From the sequence record NZ_CP095281.1: DNA of 64,000 nucleotides, one strand, 5' to 3'. Of the stretch, positions 3,001 through 9,000 are shown piece by piece. The DNA comes from a plasmid. How positions within the stretch are numbered: the first letter of the stretch is position 1; each line of letters starts with the position of its first letter. The position numbers are program-made.

Positions 3001-6000
3001 GTCGGGCAACCAGGCCAGTGTCGATCAGATGGGTGACGGCAACCAGGCCGTGGTCAAGCAGCTGGCGAGCAGCACCGCTGGCGTGGTGACCATAGATCAG
3101 AGCGGTGATGACAACTACGCCAACGCGGTGCAGGAAGCGGGCAGCAACAACCAGATCGCCATCGACCAGCAAGGGGATCGCAACCAGGTGGCGGCCGCGC
3201 GTGATGTGCAAGGCAAAGGCGCCTGGACCTGGGGTTCAGACAACGAGCTGACCGTGGCCCAGACCGGCAACGACAACTGGGCCTATGCCGATGCGTCCCA
3301 CTCCGGCTCTACCGTGACCGTGACCCAGACCGGCGACCTGAACAACGCCTCTGTCGAGTCCTACCTGGGTAGCGACAACGATCTGACCGTCAGCCAGACC
3401 GGCAACAACCATGTGGCCGACGTCTATGTCAACGCCGGTATGAATGGCGGTGGCAACCTGGTCGATGTGGTACAGACTGCGAGCTTCAACACGGCTCAGG
3501 TCGATGTCTATGGCAGCAACAACCACGCCTATGTTTATCAGGGCGGCAACTGATGATTTGCACATTCGGGGGCCTGCGGGCCCCTTTTTTATTGGTGCGA
3601 ACCCGGGACTGGCTGGCTGGTCCATGCCATCAGACCACTCCCCTGCACCGGCGGCTAGTGATGCTGCTCCTATGGCTCAGCTTGTCTCCCTCGGGATGGG
3701 CGGGCGAGTCAGAACCGGCCAAGGAGGCCAAGGTGATCCCCAAGATAAGCCTCAATGTCCAACAGGGGCCGACCGGCCTCTCCCTGGCCCCTACCCTGCA
3801 AAGCGACCAGTCGGGGGCCGTTACCTTTGCCCTGGATCTCTGGAGCCAGGGGGCGGGGGGGCGCAGTCATCAGCGCCAGAGCGGGGGGGCCGAACTGGTC
3901 GCCAACCGGCCCCATGGCGTGGGACGACTGAGTCTGGGACTGGCTTGTCCCTATCAGGCAAGAATACGGTTGCAGCTGTGGCAGGGGGCCTTGTTGCTGA
4001 GCGAGATCGACCAGACATTCGAGTGCCCCTCATCTCCATGATTTCCCGTCTGGACTGTCTATTCATCCAGTAGTCTCTATGCCATACTGGCCCGCTCTGG
4101 TTACCGTATCGAGCGCGCAACAAGATGGAAAAAATCGTGATCCGGGGTGCCCGCACCCACAACCTCAAGAACATCAATCTGACTCTTCCCCGCGACAAGC
4201 TGATCGTGGTCACCGGCCTCTCTGGCTCCGGCAAGTCTTCTTTGGCGTTCGATACCCTCTATGCCGAAGGCCAGCGCCGTTATGTGGAGTCCCTCTCCGC
4301 CTATGCCCGCCAGTTCCTCTCCCTGATGGAGAAGCCGGATGTGGATCATATCGAGGGCTTGTCGCCGGCCATCTCCATCGAACAGAAGTCTACGTCTCAT
4401 AACCCGCGTTCGACCGTCGGCACCATCACCGAAATTTATGACTATCTGCGCCTGCTGTTTGCCCGGGTGGGTGAGCCTCGCTGCCCCACCCATGCCATAC
4501 CGCTCGCCGCCCAGACCATCAGCCAGATGGTGGATCAGGTGTTGGCTCAGCCAGAAGGCAGCAAGCTGATGCTGCTGGCGCCCGTGGTGCGCGATCGCAA
4601 GGGGGAGCACAGCAAGCTGCTGGAGAACCTGGCGGCTCAGGGTTATATCCGTGCCCGCATCGATGGCGAGGTGTGTGACCTCTCGGATCCCCCCAGCCTG
4701 GAGCTGCACAAGAAGCACACCATCGAAGTGGTGGTCGACCGTTTCAAGGTGCGCGAGGATCTGGCCCTGCGCCTCGCCGAGTCCTTCGAGACGGCCTTGA
4801 CCCTCTCCGGCGGCATCGTGCTGGTGGTGCCCATGGACGGGGAGGAGGGGGTTGAACCCATGACCTTCTCGGCGAATTTCGCCTGCCCCGAGTGCGGTTA
4901 CTCCATGTCGGAGCTCGAACCGCGGATCTTCTCCTTCAACAACCCAGCCGGTGCCTGCCCCACCTGCGACGGCCTGGGTGTGCAGCAGTACTTCGATCCC
5001 GCCAAGCTGATCCACGATCCGAGCCAGAGCCTGGCAGGGGGCGCCATCCGTGGCTGGGACAAGCGCAGCTTCTATTACTTCCAGATGCTGAAATCCCTCG
5101 CCGAGCACTATCAGTTCGATCTGGAGCTCCCTTGGGGGGATCTGCCCGCCAAGGTGCAGGAAGTATTGCTGCGGGGCTCGGGCAAAACCGAGATCGAGTT
5201 CCGCTACATGAACGACCGTGGTGATGTGGTGGTGCGCAAGCACCCCTTCGAGGGGATCTTGCACAACATGGAGCGCCGCTACCGGGAAACCGAATCCAAC
5301 TCGGTACGCGAAGAGCTCTCCAAATACATCGCCAACAAGTCCTGCACCAGTTGCGGCGGCAGCCGTTTGCGGGAGGAGGCGCGTCACGTATTCGTCGATA
5401 ACCGCAACCTCTCCGCCATCGCCGAACAATCCATCGGCGATGCGCTGGCCTTCTTCGAGGGGCTGGCGCTCACCGGCCAGCGTGCCCAGATAGCGGACAA
5501 GATCCTCAAAGAGATCGTCGAGCGGCTCGGTTTTCTGGTCAACGTGGGCCTCAACTATCTGAGCCTGTCCCGCAGCGCCGAGACCCTCTCCGGCGGCGAA
5601 GCCCAGCGCATCCGCTTGGCGAGCCAGATAGGTGCCGGTCTGGTGGGGGTCATGTATGTGCTGGATGAGCCCTCCATCGGCCTGCACCAGCGGGACAACG
5701 AGCGCTTGCTCAAGACCCTCAGGGGATGGTCAGCATGCGGGCTCCCCCTCTGATTTCAAATGTTAGAAAGTTCAAGAGCGAAACAGTCGTCCCATCATGT
5801 TGACTTTCCTAGGGAAGGTGCGAATAAGTGGGTAGCACCTTCCTCTTTGATTGCTAGGTCGATTTTTGACTCGGCCCTTTTCTAAAATTGCCGGTAATCC
5901 CCCATATTCAGGGGCATTCAAAAGTAGAGGTCAGGCGGCCCGCGCCAGGTGCTGCTTTGGCGTGTAGCCACCCAGCGCCATATTAGGCCGCTCATGGTTA

Positions 6001-9000
6001 TAAACCCATTGCCATTGCGTGGCAAATTCCTGCAATTCATCGCTGAGAATCCCATTCTGCAATGCCCAAGCAGCCTGTATGAAGTCGCCAAGCAGCTGAA
6101 TGCTTGGTGTGAAAGCTGAATAGGTTGGTGGTGTGGTAAAATTACAACATCGTAGGGGAAGGCGCAGAGGTCGATGCCACTTTATGTCAGCTTATGGGTA
6201 AATTTTACCTGATTACCCATGATTAGCAGTCAGTTACCACGAACTATACTGATCTTACGTACAGTTATCGAGGTGCGAGATCATGGCCAAAAGCAAAATC
6301 CAATTCCAGAAAGGCTACAGCCTGTTTGAGTTTCTCAAGGACTATGGCACTGAGGCTCAGTGCGAAAACGCGCTGTTCACTTGGCGTTTTCCTAACGGCT
6401 TTGTCTGCCCTGAATGTGCCAACAAGACCTGTTGTCGCCTGAGAAGGCGGCCACGTGTGTGGCAATGCAATCACTGCCGTCACCAGATGTCATTGACTGG
6501 AAACACGATTTTCGCAAACACCAAGCTCCCACTGACCAAGTGGTTTCTGGCAATGCACCTGTTGTCACAAACCAAAACAGGCTTGTCAGCGATGGAGCTA
6601 AAGCGCCAGTTGGGCGTCAAATATGACACCGCCTGGATGCTCAAGCACAAGCTGCTGCAAGCCATGAAAGAGTCCGATGACAAGCAGCCCATCAGCGGCA
6701 TCATTCAGCTCGATGATGTCTACTGGGGTGGCGAGCGCCGTGGTGGCAAACGGGGTCGGGGCGCGGCAGGCAAGACGCCGTTTGTGGCAGCAGTGGCCCT
6801 GAACAAGGAAGGACATCCAATCAAGATGCGGATGACGGTGGTCGATGGTTTCAAAACCAAGTCCGTTGCTGATTGGGCAAAACGGCATATTGCCAGTGGT
6901 AGCGCGGTGATATCCGATGGATTGGCCTGTTTCAAAGCGGTCAAGGAGGCCAATTGTGAGCACCTGGGTGTTGTCACCGGGGGCAACCTGGACTGGCTGG
7001 ATCATCCGGCATTCAACTGGGTAAACACGATGATAGGAAATGTGAAAAACTCGCTGCGGGGCAGTTGCCATACGCTCGGAGCGAAGCATTTACCAAGGCA
7101 TCTTGCGGAATACTGCTTCCGGTTTAATCATCGTTTTGACCTCAAGAGCATGTTGGTTGAATTGGGGCATGCAGTCGTGGCTGTCACCGCCGATGTAAAA
7201 ATGACCCACTAACGCCGGAGTAAAGTTGACCCACCTGGGCCAAGATCGTGGCTTTTGAGCCACGCCCATGTTGACCCAGGAGTTATCAGTGGAAATCAGA
7301 GTGTTGGCCCGTCAGGGCATGAGCATCCGGGCTATCGCCCAGCAATTGCGGGTGTCCCGTAACACGGTTCGCAAGTATCTGCGCAACCCGGGCCTGCCAA
7401 TCTATCCCAACCGAGCAGCCCGACCAACCAAGCTCGATCCTTTTAAACCCTATCTGCAAGCGCGTATCCAGGCAGCGAAGCCACACTGGATCCCGGCGAC
7501 GGTTCTGCTCAGGGAACTGCGAGAGCATGGTTACACTGGCGGGCTCTCCCAGCTCAAGGCCTGGTTATCGCCTCTGCGCCATGACGCCTCTGGCACCATC
7601 GTCCGTTTTGAAACGGCCCCCGGTAAACAGATGCAGGTCGATTTCACCATTATCCGCCGCGGCAATCGGCCTCTAAAGGCCTTTGTTGCTACCCTGGGAT
7701 TTAGAGAGCAGCAAGCATATGGACAGCAGTGCCAATCAGCTAGGCCTGCTCTCCACCAATGTCCGTTCTGCCGCCGATCTACTGGGGCAGCGCTTGGAAC
7801 AAGTGACACAACAAATTGAGCAAGCCGGTAGCCAAAATGCTGCACTTACTGATCAACTCAAGCAACAAGCCGAAATGCTGGCCAGATTGCAAGATGGCCT
7901 GCTGCAGGGAGCGGAGCGGTTCGAACAGGCTGCCAGTGAGGCTCGCCATGGCTTTGTTGAGATGAAGCAAACGCAGCAACAATTCCTGACAGGGGTGAGA
8001 ACCGAATTCAATGCCTTAGGGAAGGTGCGAATAAGTCATATGGCACGAGAGCATTTACTGGTAACCCATTGATATTAAATGACTAAAATTTTCATTTTTT
8101 GTTCGTGGGATACTTGTTCGCACTTTCCTTAGCGAAAGGCAGGCCCCCACTACCAGATGCACCAATATCAGATGTTCTGGAGTGGGAGTATTCAGGAAAT
8201 CGACATCACCCGACAGAAAAGCCGGTGTCAATATTAGAACCGTTGATAGAGGCATTCACTAAGCCAGGGGATATTGTTCTAGATCCGTTCGCGGGTTCAG
8301 GTTCGACATGCGTTGCGGCTGCAAGATTGGGGCGTCGGTTTATCGGTGTTGAGTTATTACCTCAATATCATAAAGAAGCCATAGCAAGGTTGGAACCATT
8401 CTCCAAACGACAAGCTGCATGAGGTAGTGATATGAAAATTCATTCATTAGATAAGATAGAGTATGTCTCTGAATTGCTGCGACTGGCATCTGTGGCAATT
8501 AATGAAATATTAGTTATTGAGTTGACACATGAAGACAAAAAAAGTCGTGTAATTGACAATCTATTGAAGAGGCATCTTTGCACAATTGAGGCTGATGTTT
8601 TATCAGCATACGAGAAAACTGGCATCATCAGTTCTTGCTTGAATGAAATAAGGGGGGAATAAGAGGGGGCCCCTTCGGCTCGCGCTAAAGCGCTCGTCCG
8701 TCCCACTCGTCTATGCGGTCGGCTTCGCCGGCCGCAGACTCGCCGAGCCCGTTCCGGTCTCGGGCTATCGCTAGGGCCGGATGCCTAAAAGAAATGCAGC
8801 CTTAATATCGCTGTCCGCAAGCGGACCCACCCTCTCCGTAGTAACTGTCCTGTCCCGGGCCGCAAAGACGGTTTAGCAGGGAGGGGGGGGGGAGCCTGCC
8901 CCAGGTAAACACTCCAAAGAAGTTTCGGCCGACCTGCCACCTTCCCGAATATCAACAACGGAGGGGCGGCCTTATACTCGCTTGCGCTGCGCGCGCTCGT

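Follow-up and report, generated by a model that had tools for sequence, protein, structure and literature searches.

A truncated uvrA as a probable passenger on a mobile Aeromonas block, apparently joined to conjugative plasmid DNA at a 109-bp MITE

The truncated uvrA gene in the 64,000-nucleotide stretch of plasmid record NZ_CP095281.1 that we analysed (the window) appears to have hitchhiked on a mobile genomic-island block, to which the plasmid was joined later at a MITE. We give this reading as a whole a probability of about 85%. The truncated gene is an old, inert leftover on the mobile block rather than a gene broken by the present plasmid, and as a finding it is ordinary. Judged from the sequence, the junction between island block and plasmid is the MITE at 8020..8128, 2.4 kb to the right of the uvrA break. 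The initial annotation described the region as a scar of repeated IS events that joined chromosome-derived DNA to a conjugative plasmid backbone, and this description was borne out. Its placement of the plasmid junction at the uvrA break was not, as the same break and the patchwork up to 8019 are found in ten other Aeromonas loci.

The interruption of uvrA is real but had been placed slightly too far downstream, at ~5727 and codon ~535. Alignment to native Aeromonas uvrA showed that uvrA-derived DNA stops at 5719, after codon 532. The truncated ORF (4125..5753, plus strand) specifies 542 aa; codons 1-532 (to 5720) are UvrA, while the final 10 codons and the stop at 5753 come from unrelated DNA. 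The product matched the NCBIfam equivalog profile NF001503 over positions 4-536 of 943 and agreed with A. molluscorum UvrA (P0001) at all 532 residues aligned. Pfam identified complete UvrA_inter and UvrA_DNA-bind domains and the N-terminal Walker A only, with no second ABC module in the truncated product, and the 3' half of uvrA is absent from the window. The breakpoint is away from any IS terminus, with 91 bp to the nearest IS end. A LexA-box-like operator, CTGTctattcatCCAG (4055..4070, plus strand), was read from the sequence 55 bp upstream of the uvrA start codon. We take this candidate site to resemble the CTGT-N8-ACAG SOS box and the E. coli uvrA operator.

Positions 1..5719 (plus strand) are A. 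molluscorum-type chromosomal DNA and form the right-hand 5.7 kb of a 7.16-kb segment. They aligned with contig AQGQ01000024.1 of A. molluscorum 848 (L018) at 97.99% identity over 5729 aligned positions, and they contain the end of csgF (122..295), csgG (303..1157, Pfam CsgG) and two curlin-repeat genes (1423..1944 and 1979..3553, Pfam Curlin_rpt). The native gene order in A. molluscorum 848 is ssb-csgDEFG-csgBA-uvrA. The csg genes are immediately upstream of uvrA in A. bivalvium too, at 86-87% identity, and the native A. caviae uvrA is merely 88.5% identical to the window allele and stands without csgEFG alongside. The uvrA allele in the window is foreign and of A. molluscorum type (98%).

The breakpoint is followed by IS fragments and orphan DNA from 5720 to 7704. 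An orphan stretch of 91 bp (5720..5810) lies between the breakpoint and an IS5-family end and, block copies excepted, had no match in the plasmid collection or the fetched loci. The supposed 31-bp mini-element proved to be no separate element but the start (31 bp) of a repeated stretch of 82 bp (5811..5892, plus strand), made up of 2 flanking bases and 80 bp (5813..5892) of an IS5-family terminus, that on the side downstream of the transposase. In relatives the same 82 bp enter a full-length IS; at 929..1010 of one such locus (L006) they run on into an IS5-family element of ~1.2 kb, which spans 931..3213 and is split by an IS30-family element. The adjoining right end of an IS3-family element (ISKpn10/ISAs22-like; 5893..6041, minus strand) retains the last ~36 transposase codons, with the stop at 5931..5933. 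Annotated ISKpn10 and ISAs22 ends share 86-88% identity with it; an unannotated copy in pK533-strA comes closer, at 97%. This tail corresponds to orfB residues 240-270 of 275 (tblastn), and its rve_3 match (25.0 bits) is below the Pfam gathering score of 26.5 bits. Another 166 bp of orphan DNA (6042..6207), between the IS3-family end and ISKpn3, matched nothing beyond block copies and no IS3 transposase.

ISKpn3, the IS1595-family element (6208..7181, plus strand), had been called intact. Of the 1031 bp, 974 are left, among them the left inverted repeat; the last 57 bp are missing, right inverted repeat included. The element is 99.5-100% identical to annotated copies and carries the Pfam DDE_Tnp_IS1595 and zinc ribbon domains, and the final 10 codons of its ORF are supplied by the IS21 element that follows. 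The intact ISKpn3 in pGSH8M-1-1 is 1031 bp long, is flanked by an 8-bp target duplication and encodes a transposase of 316 aa. The IS21-family remnant is ISAeme17 (7182..7704, plus strand), which begins exactly at its own left terminus when the junctions are read base by base. It comprises the first ~145 istA codons (start 7268) without istB, and its 523 bp agree at every position with an annotated copy in pKPC2_SCLZS19. The IS3-family rve-transposase tail, the IS21 istA head and the methylase tail reported initially are all present.

The coiled-coil fragment (7705..8019, plus strand), previously unassigned, lies between the ISAeme17 remnant on the left and the MITE on the right and comes from within the type I Zorya gene zorA, from its tail part; the match to the PADLOC ZorA1 profile PDLC00601 covers positions 522-632 of 699 (E 2e-31). 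In loci without the MITE the zorA ORF continues for 165 aa (E 3e-60) and a full zorB follows (E 7e-112). Compared with type I Zorya (zorABCD), however, only ~105 zorA tail codons are left in the window, and zorA of the relatives is without the first ~520 positions. The Zorya system is dead in the window.

The exact 542-aa truncated product was found in 118 blocks of the assembly collection. Ten Aeromonas loci were fetched for comparison, seven of them on chromosome-sized contigs (4.67-5.04 Mb). All ten have the order csgDEFG-csgBA-truncated uvrA-ISKpn3, and positions 1..8019 of the window, with csg, the truncated uvrA and the whole IS patchwork, were collinear with 10/10 loci at 99.64-100% identity. 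The plasmid DNA of the window beyond 8132 was present in 0/10 of these loci. The seven copies on Mb-sized contigs are all chromosomal, and the csg block was found in 0/72,556 plasmid records. Complete genomes bearing the block include CP043579.1, AP022188.1 and AP025280.1; the recipients R1-26 and WP7-W18-ESBL-02 are A. media (PMC9752117), and NUITM-VA2 is A. caviae (PMC9769766).

In A. media R1-26 the block is 5.5 kb from folD. The counterpart of that folD-side flank in the A. caviae KAM479 chromosome is at 2.244 Mb; native uvrA is there at 4.453 Mb, 2.2 Mb from folD. The left end of the block falls outside the window, and its left flank in the recipient loci is IS debris, not ssb. On this mapping the block sits away from the native uvrA locus. 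UvrA protein searches yielded mostly partial UvrA sequences, and look-ups matched assemblies other than the block carriers. Block-bearing hosts presumably retain an intact native uvrA, and with that gene untouched at its own locus no UV sensitivity would be expected.

The MITE (8020..8128, plus strand; 109 bp) has IS5-type 17-nt terminal inverted repeats, contains no ORF and has TTAG on either side (8016..8019 and 8129..8132). The IS5-type 17-mer, GGAAGGTGCGAATAAGT, occurs at 5813 and 8020, and the window contains 5 matches to it with at most 3 mismatches, compared with a chance expectation of 0.10. The 16-mer read earlier as an IS5 right end cutting the coiled-coil fragment is indeed an IS5-type end, but one end of the complete 109-bp MITE. 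Likewise, a pair of identical direct 20-mers is present, although they start at 5810 and 8017 rather than at 5812 and 8025. These were thought to bracket one mosaic; they belong to two different elements, the IS fragment and the MITE, and what they share is limited to the 17-nt terminal repeat and a TAG that stems from the IS5 target preference.

Copies of the MITE were found in 54 plasmid records and at 11 places in the A. caviae KAM479 chromosome, and none of the database records that hold copies annotates it. Simple insertions elsewhere show perfect 4-bp target duplications (CTAG/CTAG and CTAA/CTAA). With these duplications, its 109-bp length, multiple copies and lack of an ORF the element resembles IS5-family MITEs. 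Its 17-nt terminal repeats match those of IS5-like elements, including the window's own (35614..36807), and there was no similarity beyond the termini to the two IS5-family elements examined. It departs from IS5-family MITEs in that the present copy has non-cognate flanks, both in the window and at 6/6 other loci, which hold the same copy with right flanks that differ from the window. Four right flanks of this copy, including that of the window, begin with TTAG, CTAG, CTAA and CTAA, all of which fit the IS5 target YTAR, and the left flank reads TTAG every time. TTAG stands at the MITE site in the intact zorA remnant as well. By itself, the matching TTAG on both sides of the window MITE resembles a simple insertion.

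Plasmid homology (L014 and L015; 99.5-99.99%) begins at 8129, within a pAsa8-type plasmid DNA methyltransferase gene of which codons 118-214 are present (8129..8422, plus strand). The fragment is without the first 117 codons, DPPY motif included, and it matched positions 115-208 of 226 in NF010253 and 155-219 of 221 in Pfam N6_N4_Mtase. In L014 and L015 the methylase gene is intact (214 aa), and the alignment with it begins at its own codon-118 TTAG. The window also holds a coupling protein and relaxase (11439..17075), F-type transfer genes, ParA and ParB (48352..50213) and an IncFII-type RepA (53669..54598). The window lacks the plasmid's leading region, which lies upstream of methylase codon 118. 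Positions 7105..17452, and with them the MITE-methylase junction, recur at 100% identity in an independent contig of 10,348 bp (GCA_023016135.1).

We infer the following sequence of events, and with it how recombination took place and which way the fusion ran. IS activity would have excised the 7.16-kb A. molluscorum-lineage piece, from ~235 bp upstream of csgD to uvrA codon 532, and the piece would have lodged in an integrase-bearing, defence-gene-rich genomic island. The nested patchwork would have been gained there, with the IS5-family end hit by the IS3-family element and ISKpn3 hit by ISAeme17, and a deletion may have joined the ISAeme17 remnant to the zorA tail. The block, its junctions fixed beforehand, would have dispersed among Aeromonas chromosomes (A. 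media, A. caviae). The IS5-type MITE would afterwards have entered TTAG in the zorA remnant and then served as a recombination point, its right end being joined to the TTAG at methylase codon 118 of a pAsa8-like F-type conjugative plasmid. Recombination with a second MITE copy inserted in the plasmid would be the likeliest way for this to happen. No sequenced plasmid relative has a MITE in the methylase gene (it is intact in L014 and L015), and the plasmid-borne partner is therefore hypothetical. IS5-transposase-mediated attack on the methylase TTAG would be an alternative route.

We lean towards an Hfr-like outcome, with the plasmid integrated in a chromosomal island. An F-prime-like outcome, for which we would offer somewhat less than even odds, would have a free pAsa8-like plasmid take up the block through the MITE and a second junction left of the window. 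The full plasmid kit in the window (RepA, ParA/ParB, coupling protein, relaxase and F-type transfer genes) is consistent with such capture, and the missing leading region would be expected had the block replaced it, although that region could equally be past the right end of the window. Capture would require two junctions, whereas a single crossover suffices for integration, and the lack of the block among the 72,556 plasmid records and the chromosomal position of all seven copies on Mb-sized contigs also argue against it. Were it true, the curli genes would be conjugatively transmissible, and the captured segment would have been the already mobile island block rather than the host's native csg-uvrA locus.

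That the plasmid integrated into uvrA and left the strain UV-sensitive, as initially suggested, is effectively refuted by the recurrence of the same break in other loci, by the foreign allele and by the location of the block away from the native locus. Insertion of the plasmid or of the IS load into the strain's own uvrA, with the 3' half beyond the other boundary, is scarcely credible. It would account for an ORF that stops abruptly and gives way to IS debris and, 2.4 kb later, to plasmid DNA, and a 3' half outside the window could be distant. However, the same break and 2.3 kb of debris occur in ten loci that never enter the window's plasmid DNA beyond 8132, the known recipients of this A. 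molluscorum-type allele (98%) are A. media and A. caviae, with IS debris instead of ssb at the left flank and the block near folD, and plasmid homology begins at 8129, not 5720. An assembly chimera at ~5720 or ~8128, from collapsed IS or MITE repeats, is very improbable. Both junctions do adjoin repeated elements, classic sites of misassembly, and the MITE-methylase junction is known from one further contig only; yet that contig reproduces 7105..17452 exactly, the 109-bp MITE is shorter than a read pair, and the 5719/5720 junction is found again in assemblies made independently in several laboratories and countries, seven chromosome-sized contigs included. It is also very unlikely that the truncated UvrA is kept for a function, as an SOS-inducible 542-aa protein that might titrate UvrB or LexA and modulate repair or mutagenesis. 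Such a protein would keep the UvrB-binding and insertion domains (UvrA_inter and UvrA_DNA-bind are complete), the upstream region with the LexA-box-like site and the start codon is preserved and matches the donor, and the ORF is identical in many genomes. The adjoining non-coding debris is equally identical, however (99.6-100% over 8 kb), which points to recent spread and not to selection on the ORF. Furthermore, the protein has nothing of the second ATPase module and stops just past the Walker B/D-loop region of the first; going by UvrA structure, its stability and dimerisation are presumably doubtful.

Hfr and F-prime strains arise in E. coli when an IS copy on the F plasmid recombines with another in the chromosome. 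The present case is similar in that a short transposable element, which would have been on both partners, links an F-type conjugative plasmid to DNA of chromosomal origin, each side of the junction keeping the target bases of its own insertion. It differs in that the element is not a full IS2, IS3 or gamma-delta but a non-autonomous MITE of 109 bp, and in the Aeromonas host and pAsa8-like plasmid; with one junction seen, either outcome, Hfr-like or F-prime-like, would fit. IS-mediated capture of chromosomal genes can also drag along pieces of neighbouring genes, as with blaCTX-M and its Kluyvera flanking fragments. Here the cargo is the curli (csg) operon, with no resistance gene, uvrA does not break off directly at an IS end, and no single IS can be named as mobiliser. 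As in blaCTX-M capture, a truncated core gene rides with the cargo, and the donor species, A. molluscorum in this case, can be told from its allele; what remains of uvrA is a molecular fossil rather than a disrupted host gene.

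The 5' end of the window (1..8019, here the block) carries csg (curli) genes, a truncated uvrA and a patchwork of insertion sequence (IS) remains. The region is of a common kind, in which a block of a mobile island, with a fossil piece of a gene and nested IS debris, is fused to a plasmid at a 109-bp IS5-type MITE. Its interest is modest and lies in a mobile curli operon traced to its donor, in a recurrent mis-annotation that can now be flagged, and in an unannotated MITE that acts as a recombination point.

The truncated uvrA ORF (4125..5753) encodes 542 aa. Residues 2-534 matched positions 4-536 of the 943 in the UvrA equivalog profile NF001503 with 830.9 bits, which falls below the cut-off of 1147 bits for the full protein. 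The two tandem ABC ATPase modules and the ~940 aa expected of a functional UvrA are lacking, and Pfam ABC_tran recognized the N-terminal Walker A stretch only. Alignment with native Aeromonas uvrA ended at 5719, after codon 532 (Leu), with the first mismatch at base 5720, and this endpoint was the same with A. caviae KAM479 (88.5% identity) and A. molluscorum 848 (98.0%). The final 10 codons and the stop derive from unrelated DNA, and the 3' half of uvrA was absent throughout the 64-kb window. The initial annotation was right that the gene is truncated; its placing of the collapse at ~5727, codon ~535, has to be corrected. Two Aeromonas contigs, 4.63 and 4.71 Mb long, carry further truncated UvrA ORFs (P0007 with 621 aa and P0008 with 590 aa) that share 95-96% identity with the query and could be frameshifted native genes or additional fragments.

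The top protein match of the ORF was A. molluscorum UvrA, with 100% identity over 532 aa. The A. molluscorum contig has the native order ssb-csgDEFG-csgBA-uvrA, and its homology to the block spans 7.16 kb in total, from ~235 bp upstream of csgD to window 5719 (97.99% identity over the window part), with ssb outside the homologous stretch. In A. bivalvium the csg genes likewise lie immediately upstream of uvrA (86-87% identity). A. caviae has a csgD-like regulator alone between ssb and uvrA; the reference for this species was PLSDB NZ_AP026896.1, a 4.94-Mb 'plasmid pKAM479_3' that is evidently the mislabelled A. caviae KAM479 chromosome. By the donor match and the native csg-uvrA order, the block is a piece of A. 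molluscorum-lineage chromosome that other species now carry. The curli operon of the A. molluscorum/A. bivalvium lineage, to which it is native, is thus moving between Aeromonas species.

In the assembly collection, 118 indexed blocks contain the identical 542-aa product. The ten loci retrieved, of which seven are on chromosome-sized contigs (4.67-5.04 Mb), all had the same gene order: csgDEFG, two curlin genes, truncated uvrA and ISKpn3. Window 1..8019 was collinear with every one of them at 99.64-100% identity, so the uvrA junction and all IS junctions up to 8019 predate this strain. Two of the block-bearing chromosomes belong to A. media, R1-26 from China and WP7-W18-ESBL-02 from Japan (PMC9752117), and one to A. 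caviae NUITM-VA2 from Vietnam (PMC9769766). Since these independent A. media and A. caviae assemblies share the uvrA break, an assembly chimera at ~5720 is ruled out. The proposal that the plasmid interrupted uvrA or was joined to it also falls, as the break is common to the ten loci and plasmid homology starts at 8129. The DNA around the block in the ten loci, with tyrosine integrases, BrxR-type regulators, MksBEF and helicase/methyltransferase pairs, looks like a variable, defence-rich island. The literature searched for Aeromonas curli/uvrA and for IS5 MITEs of Aeromonas held no description of the block or of the MITE.

The block does not occupy a native uvrA locus. It does not adjoin ssb, and its uvrA is not the species' own allele (98% identity to A. 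molluscorum versus 88.5% to A. caviae). To its left, the ten related loci have IS debris; the window itself begins inside csgF, and for the window this conclusion leans on its 99.6-100% identity to those loci. In A. media R1-26 the block lies 5.5 kb from folD, and its flank maps to 2.244 Mb of the A. caviae KAM479 chromosome, where native uvrA is at 4.453 Mb. An intact A. caviae-type uvrA (942 aa) has the csgD-like regulator/ssb and a CHASE4-GGDEF gene as neighbors. From the foreign allele and the position of the block away from the native locus, we infer that the hosts keep an intact uvrA of their own at another site. The UvrA cluster member of A. caviae KAM479 (P0241) was present in other assemblies and in none of the ten block-bearing ones; in a search of genome contigs with conserved UvrA peptides, A. 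bivalvium was the one Aeromonas locus among the matches listed, and the UvrA matches in protein databases were nearly all partial sequences.

The truncated uvrA is a harmless fossil that marks the donor of the mobile curli block, not a disrupted host function. An unlikely alternative is that the 542-aa stub travelling with the operon is expressed under SOS control, binds UvrB and would interfere with nucleotide excision repair. The ORF does retain the UvrB-binding domain (PF17760, residues 130-236, E 1e-38) and the DNA-binding insertion domain (PF17755, residues 291-400, E 2e-40), and the putative LexA box CTGTctattcatCCAG at 4055..4070 resembles the SOS-box consensus. A promoter scan returned no consensus sigma-70 site upstream of uvrA. 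Annotation of the 542-aa 'UvrA', which recurs in many Aeromonas assemblies, should mark it as a fragment of a pseudogene carried by a mobile island and not as the strain's uvrA.

The patchwork between uvrA and the MITE (5720..8019) had largely been inventoried correctly, and several details needed revision. It opens with 91 bp without a match (5720..5810), followed by an 82-bp repeated stretch (5811..5892) made of 2 flanking bases and 80 bp of an IS5-family terminus with its 17-nt terminal repeat at 5813. What had been described as a 31-bp mini-element is only the start of this stretch; in related genomes the same 82 bp run on into a ~1.2-kb IS5-family element (931..3213 of L006, the A. media R1-26 locus, interrupted there by an IS30-family element). 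Next comes the right end of an IS3-family element near ISKpn10/ISAs22, on the minus strand, with the last ~36 transposase codons (5893..6041), and then 166 bp without a match (6042..6207). Neither orphan piece matched anything searched. A single split IS3 copy was considered as the source of both the 5893..6041 tail and the IS3 part left of the block; orfB residues 1-203 and 240-270 were found and ~204-239 were missing, which leaves the reconstruction incomplete.

The IS1595-family element, reported as intact, is a truncated ISKpn3 (6208..7181). Intact ISKpn3 has 1031 bp, an 8-bp target duplication, a 316-aa transposase and both inverted repeats; the window copy has the left repeat at 6208, ends 57 bp early and has no right repeat, and the last 10 codons of its ORF are supplied by ISAeme17 (IS21 family). 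Of ISAeme17 only 523 bp are present (7182..7704), with the left terminus and ~145 istA codons; istB and a second multi-repeat terminus are lacking. As this remnant starts at 7182 with exactly its own left terminus, ISAeme17 would have inserted into ISKpn3 and later been cut at 7704. In A. media R1-26 the first 106 bp of ISKpn3, in inverted orientation, and the 82-bp IS5-family repeat each occur a second time to the left of the block (L006 776..1010), beyond the stretch that the window covers. This places the block between two ISKpn3 left ends that face each other, which could be a relic of its movement.

The coiled-coil fragment that had been left unassigned (7705..8019) is a piece of the ZorA1 tail (PADLOC PDLC00601, positions 522-632 of 699, E 2e-31), and these positions are all that the window holds of a type I Zorya system (zorA, zorB, zorC, zorD). 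In relatives the zorA-tail ORF continues over 165 aa, with zorB (E 7e-112) next. Three MITE-free loci (L005, L007 and L009, 13596..15536) carry the 165-aa zorA tail, a complete zorB and a 221-aa ORF that matched no family; they are what is left of a type I Zorya system after ISAeme17 cut off its front part.

The MITE itself (8020..8128, 109 bp) has TTAG on either side. It is short and non-coding, and its ends, GGAAGGTGCGAATAAGT and GGAAAGTGCGAACAAGT, agree at 15 of 17 positions and match those of the IS5-like element at 35614..36807; beyond the 17-nt ends it shares nothing with that element or with the IS5-family element of the island. The two identical 20-mers that had been read as bracketing the mosaic belong to different elements. 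The first lies in the IS5-family terminal fragment of the 82-bp repeat and the second in the MITE, unrelated past the 17-nt repeat, and a composite transposon bounded by them was rejected. MITE copies were found in 54 plasmid records and at 11 places in one A. caviae chromosome, and were annotated in none. Two of four examined copies had matching 4-bp YTAR duplications (CTAG/CTAG in pMC64A, CTAA/CTAA in a Salmonella plasmid). The flanks of the other two did not match (CTAA/TTAG in pMCR5_045096 and TTAG/TAAG in the A. caviae KAM479 chromosome, respectively), and rearrangement at the MITE seems frequent. The IS5-like element at 35614..36807 is full (1194 bp, 338-aa ORF) with differing flanks (left CTAG, right TTAT), and this copy may also be at a recombinant junction.

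Six other loci have this MITE copy behind an identical left TTAG, and the right flanks vary. In the window the right flank is TTAG and the plasmid methylase from codon 118 onwards; in L006, L008, L012 and L013 it is CTAG and a methyltransferase/DEAD-helicase pair, in L010 CTAA and an MZB/UvrD pair, and in L011 CTAA and an 883-aa integrase. Every one of these flanks fits the IS5 target YTAR. Such a pattern is expected from recombination between MITE copies that sit at different YTAR sites, and equally from a transposase that joins a MITE end to a new target. In L004 (GCA_019971955.1, 13867..13895) the zorA remnant is broken at the same TTAG as in the window, with no MITE and unrelated DNA next, which suggests either loss of the MITE along with its flank or another event that used this site.

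The plasmid part begins directly after the MITE, with codons 118-214 of a methyltransferase gene (8129..8422) that is intact, at 214 aa, in related plasmid contigs. Two pAsa8-like F-type plasmid contigs (L014 and L015) match the window from 8129 onwards at 99.5-99.99%. Their intact methylase has TTAG at codon 118, and the uninterrupted zorA remnant of L005, L007 and L009 has TTAG at the MITE position, so the two TTAGs beside the window MITE come from two different genes. A simple MITE insertion does not fit these flanks, the zorA tail on the left and the plasmid methylase on the right, as the two are found uninterrupted in different genes and on different replicons. The MITE-methylase junction was rare, with one other contig (GCA_023016135.1, 10,348 bp) 100% identical to window 7105..17452. 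The unannotated MITE repeatedly acts as a recombination point, and through it the island became joined to an F-type conjugative plasmid in at least one strain.

The direction of this fusion decides whether it bears on chromosome mobilisation or on plasmid-borne curli. The window holds a full plasmid kit, with a coupling protein and relaxase (11439..17075), F-type transfer genes, ParA and ParB (48352..50213), an IncFII-type RepA (53669..54598) and a Tn3-family transposase (60502..63468). The flanking plasmid gene was found on contigs <50 kb only. The csg block was in none of 72,556 plasmid records, its instances on Mb-sized contigs were all chromosomal, and integration needs one crossover where capture needs two junctions. 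For these reasons we lean, at roughly 60:40, towards a plasmid integrated in the chromosomal island (Hfr-like) over capture of the block by the plasmid (F-prime-like). The 5' part of the methylase, the 3' part of zorA and the leading region were not present in the 64-kb window. A less likely reading is that the window is a free, transfer-proficient pAsa8-like plasmid with a complete A. molluscorum-origin curli operon captured by MITE-mediated recombination; if so, curli biogenesis would be conjugatively transmissible among Aeromonas.

The plasmid part also contains G+C-rich (0.62-0.70) degenerate repeat arrays at 17128..18446 and 32499..35298, mutually 75-86% identical with offsets of ~200 bp, which were also found in L014 and L015. 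A separate repeat with a 99-bp period lies at 19767..20364 within a 1264-aa ORF.
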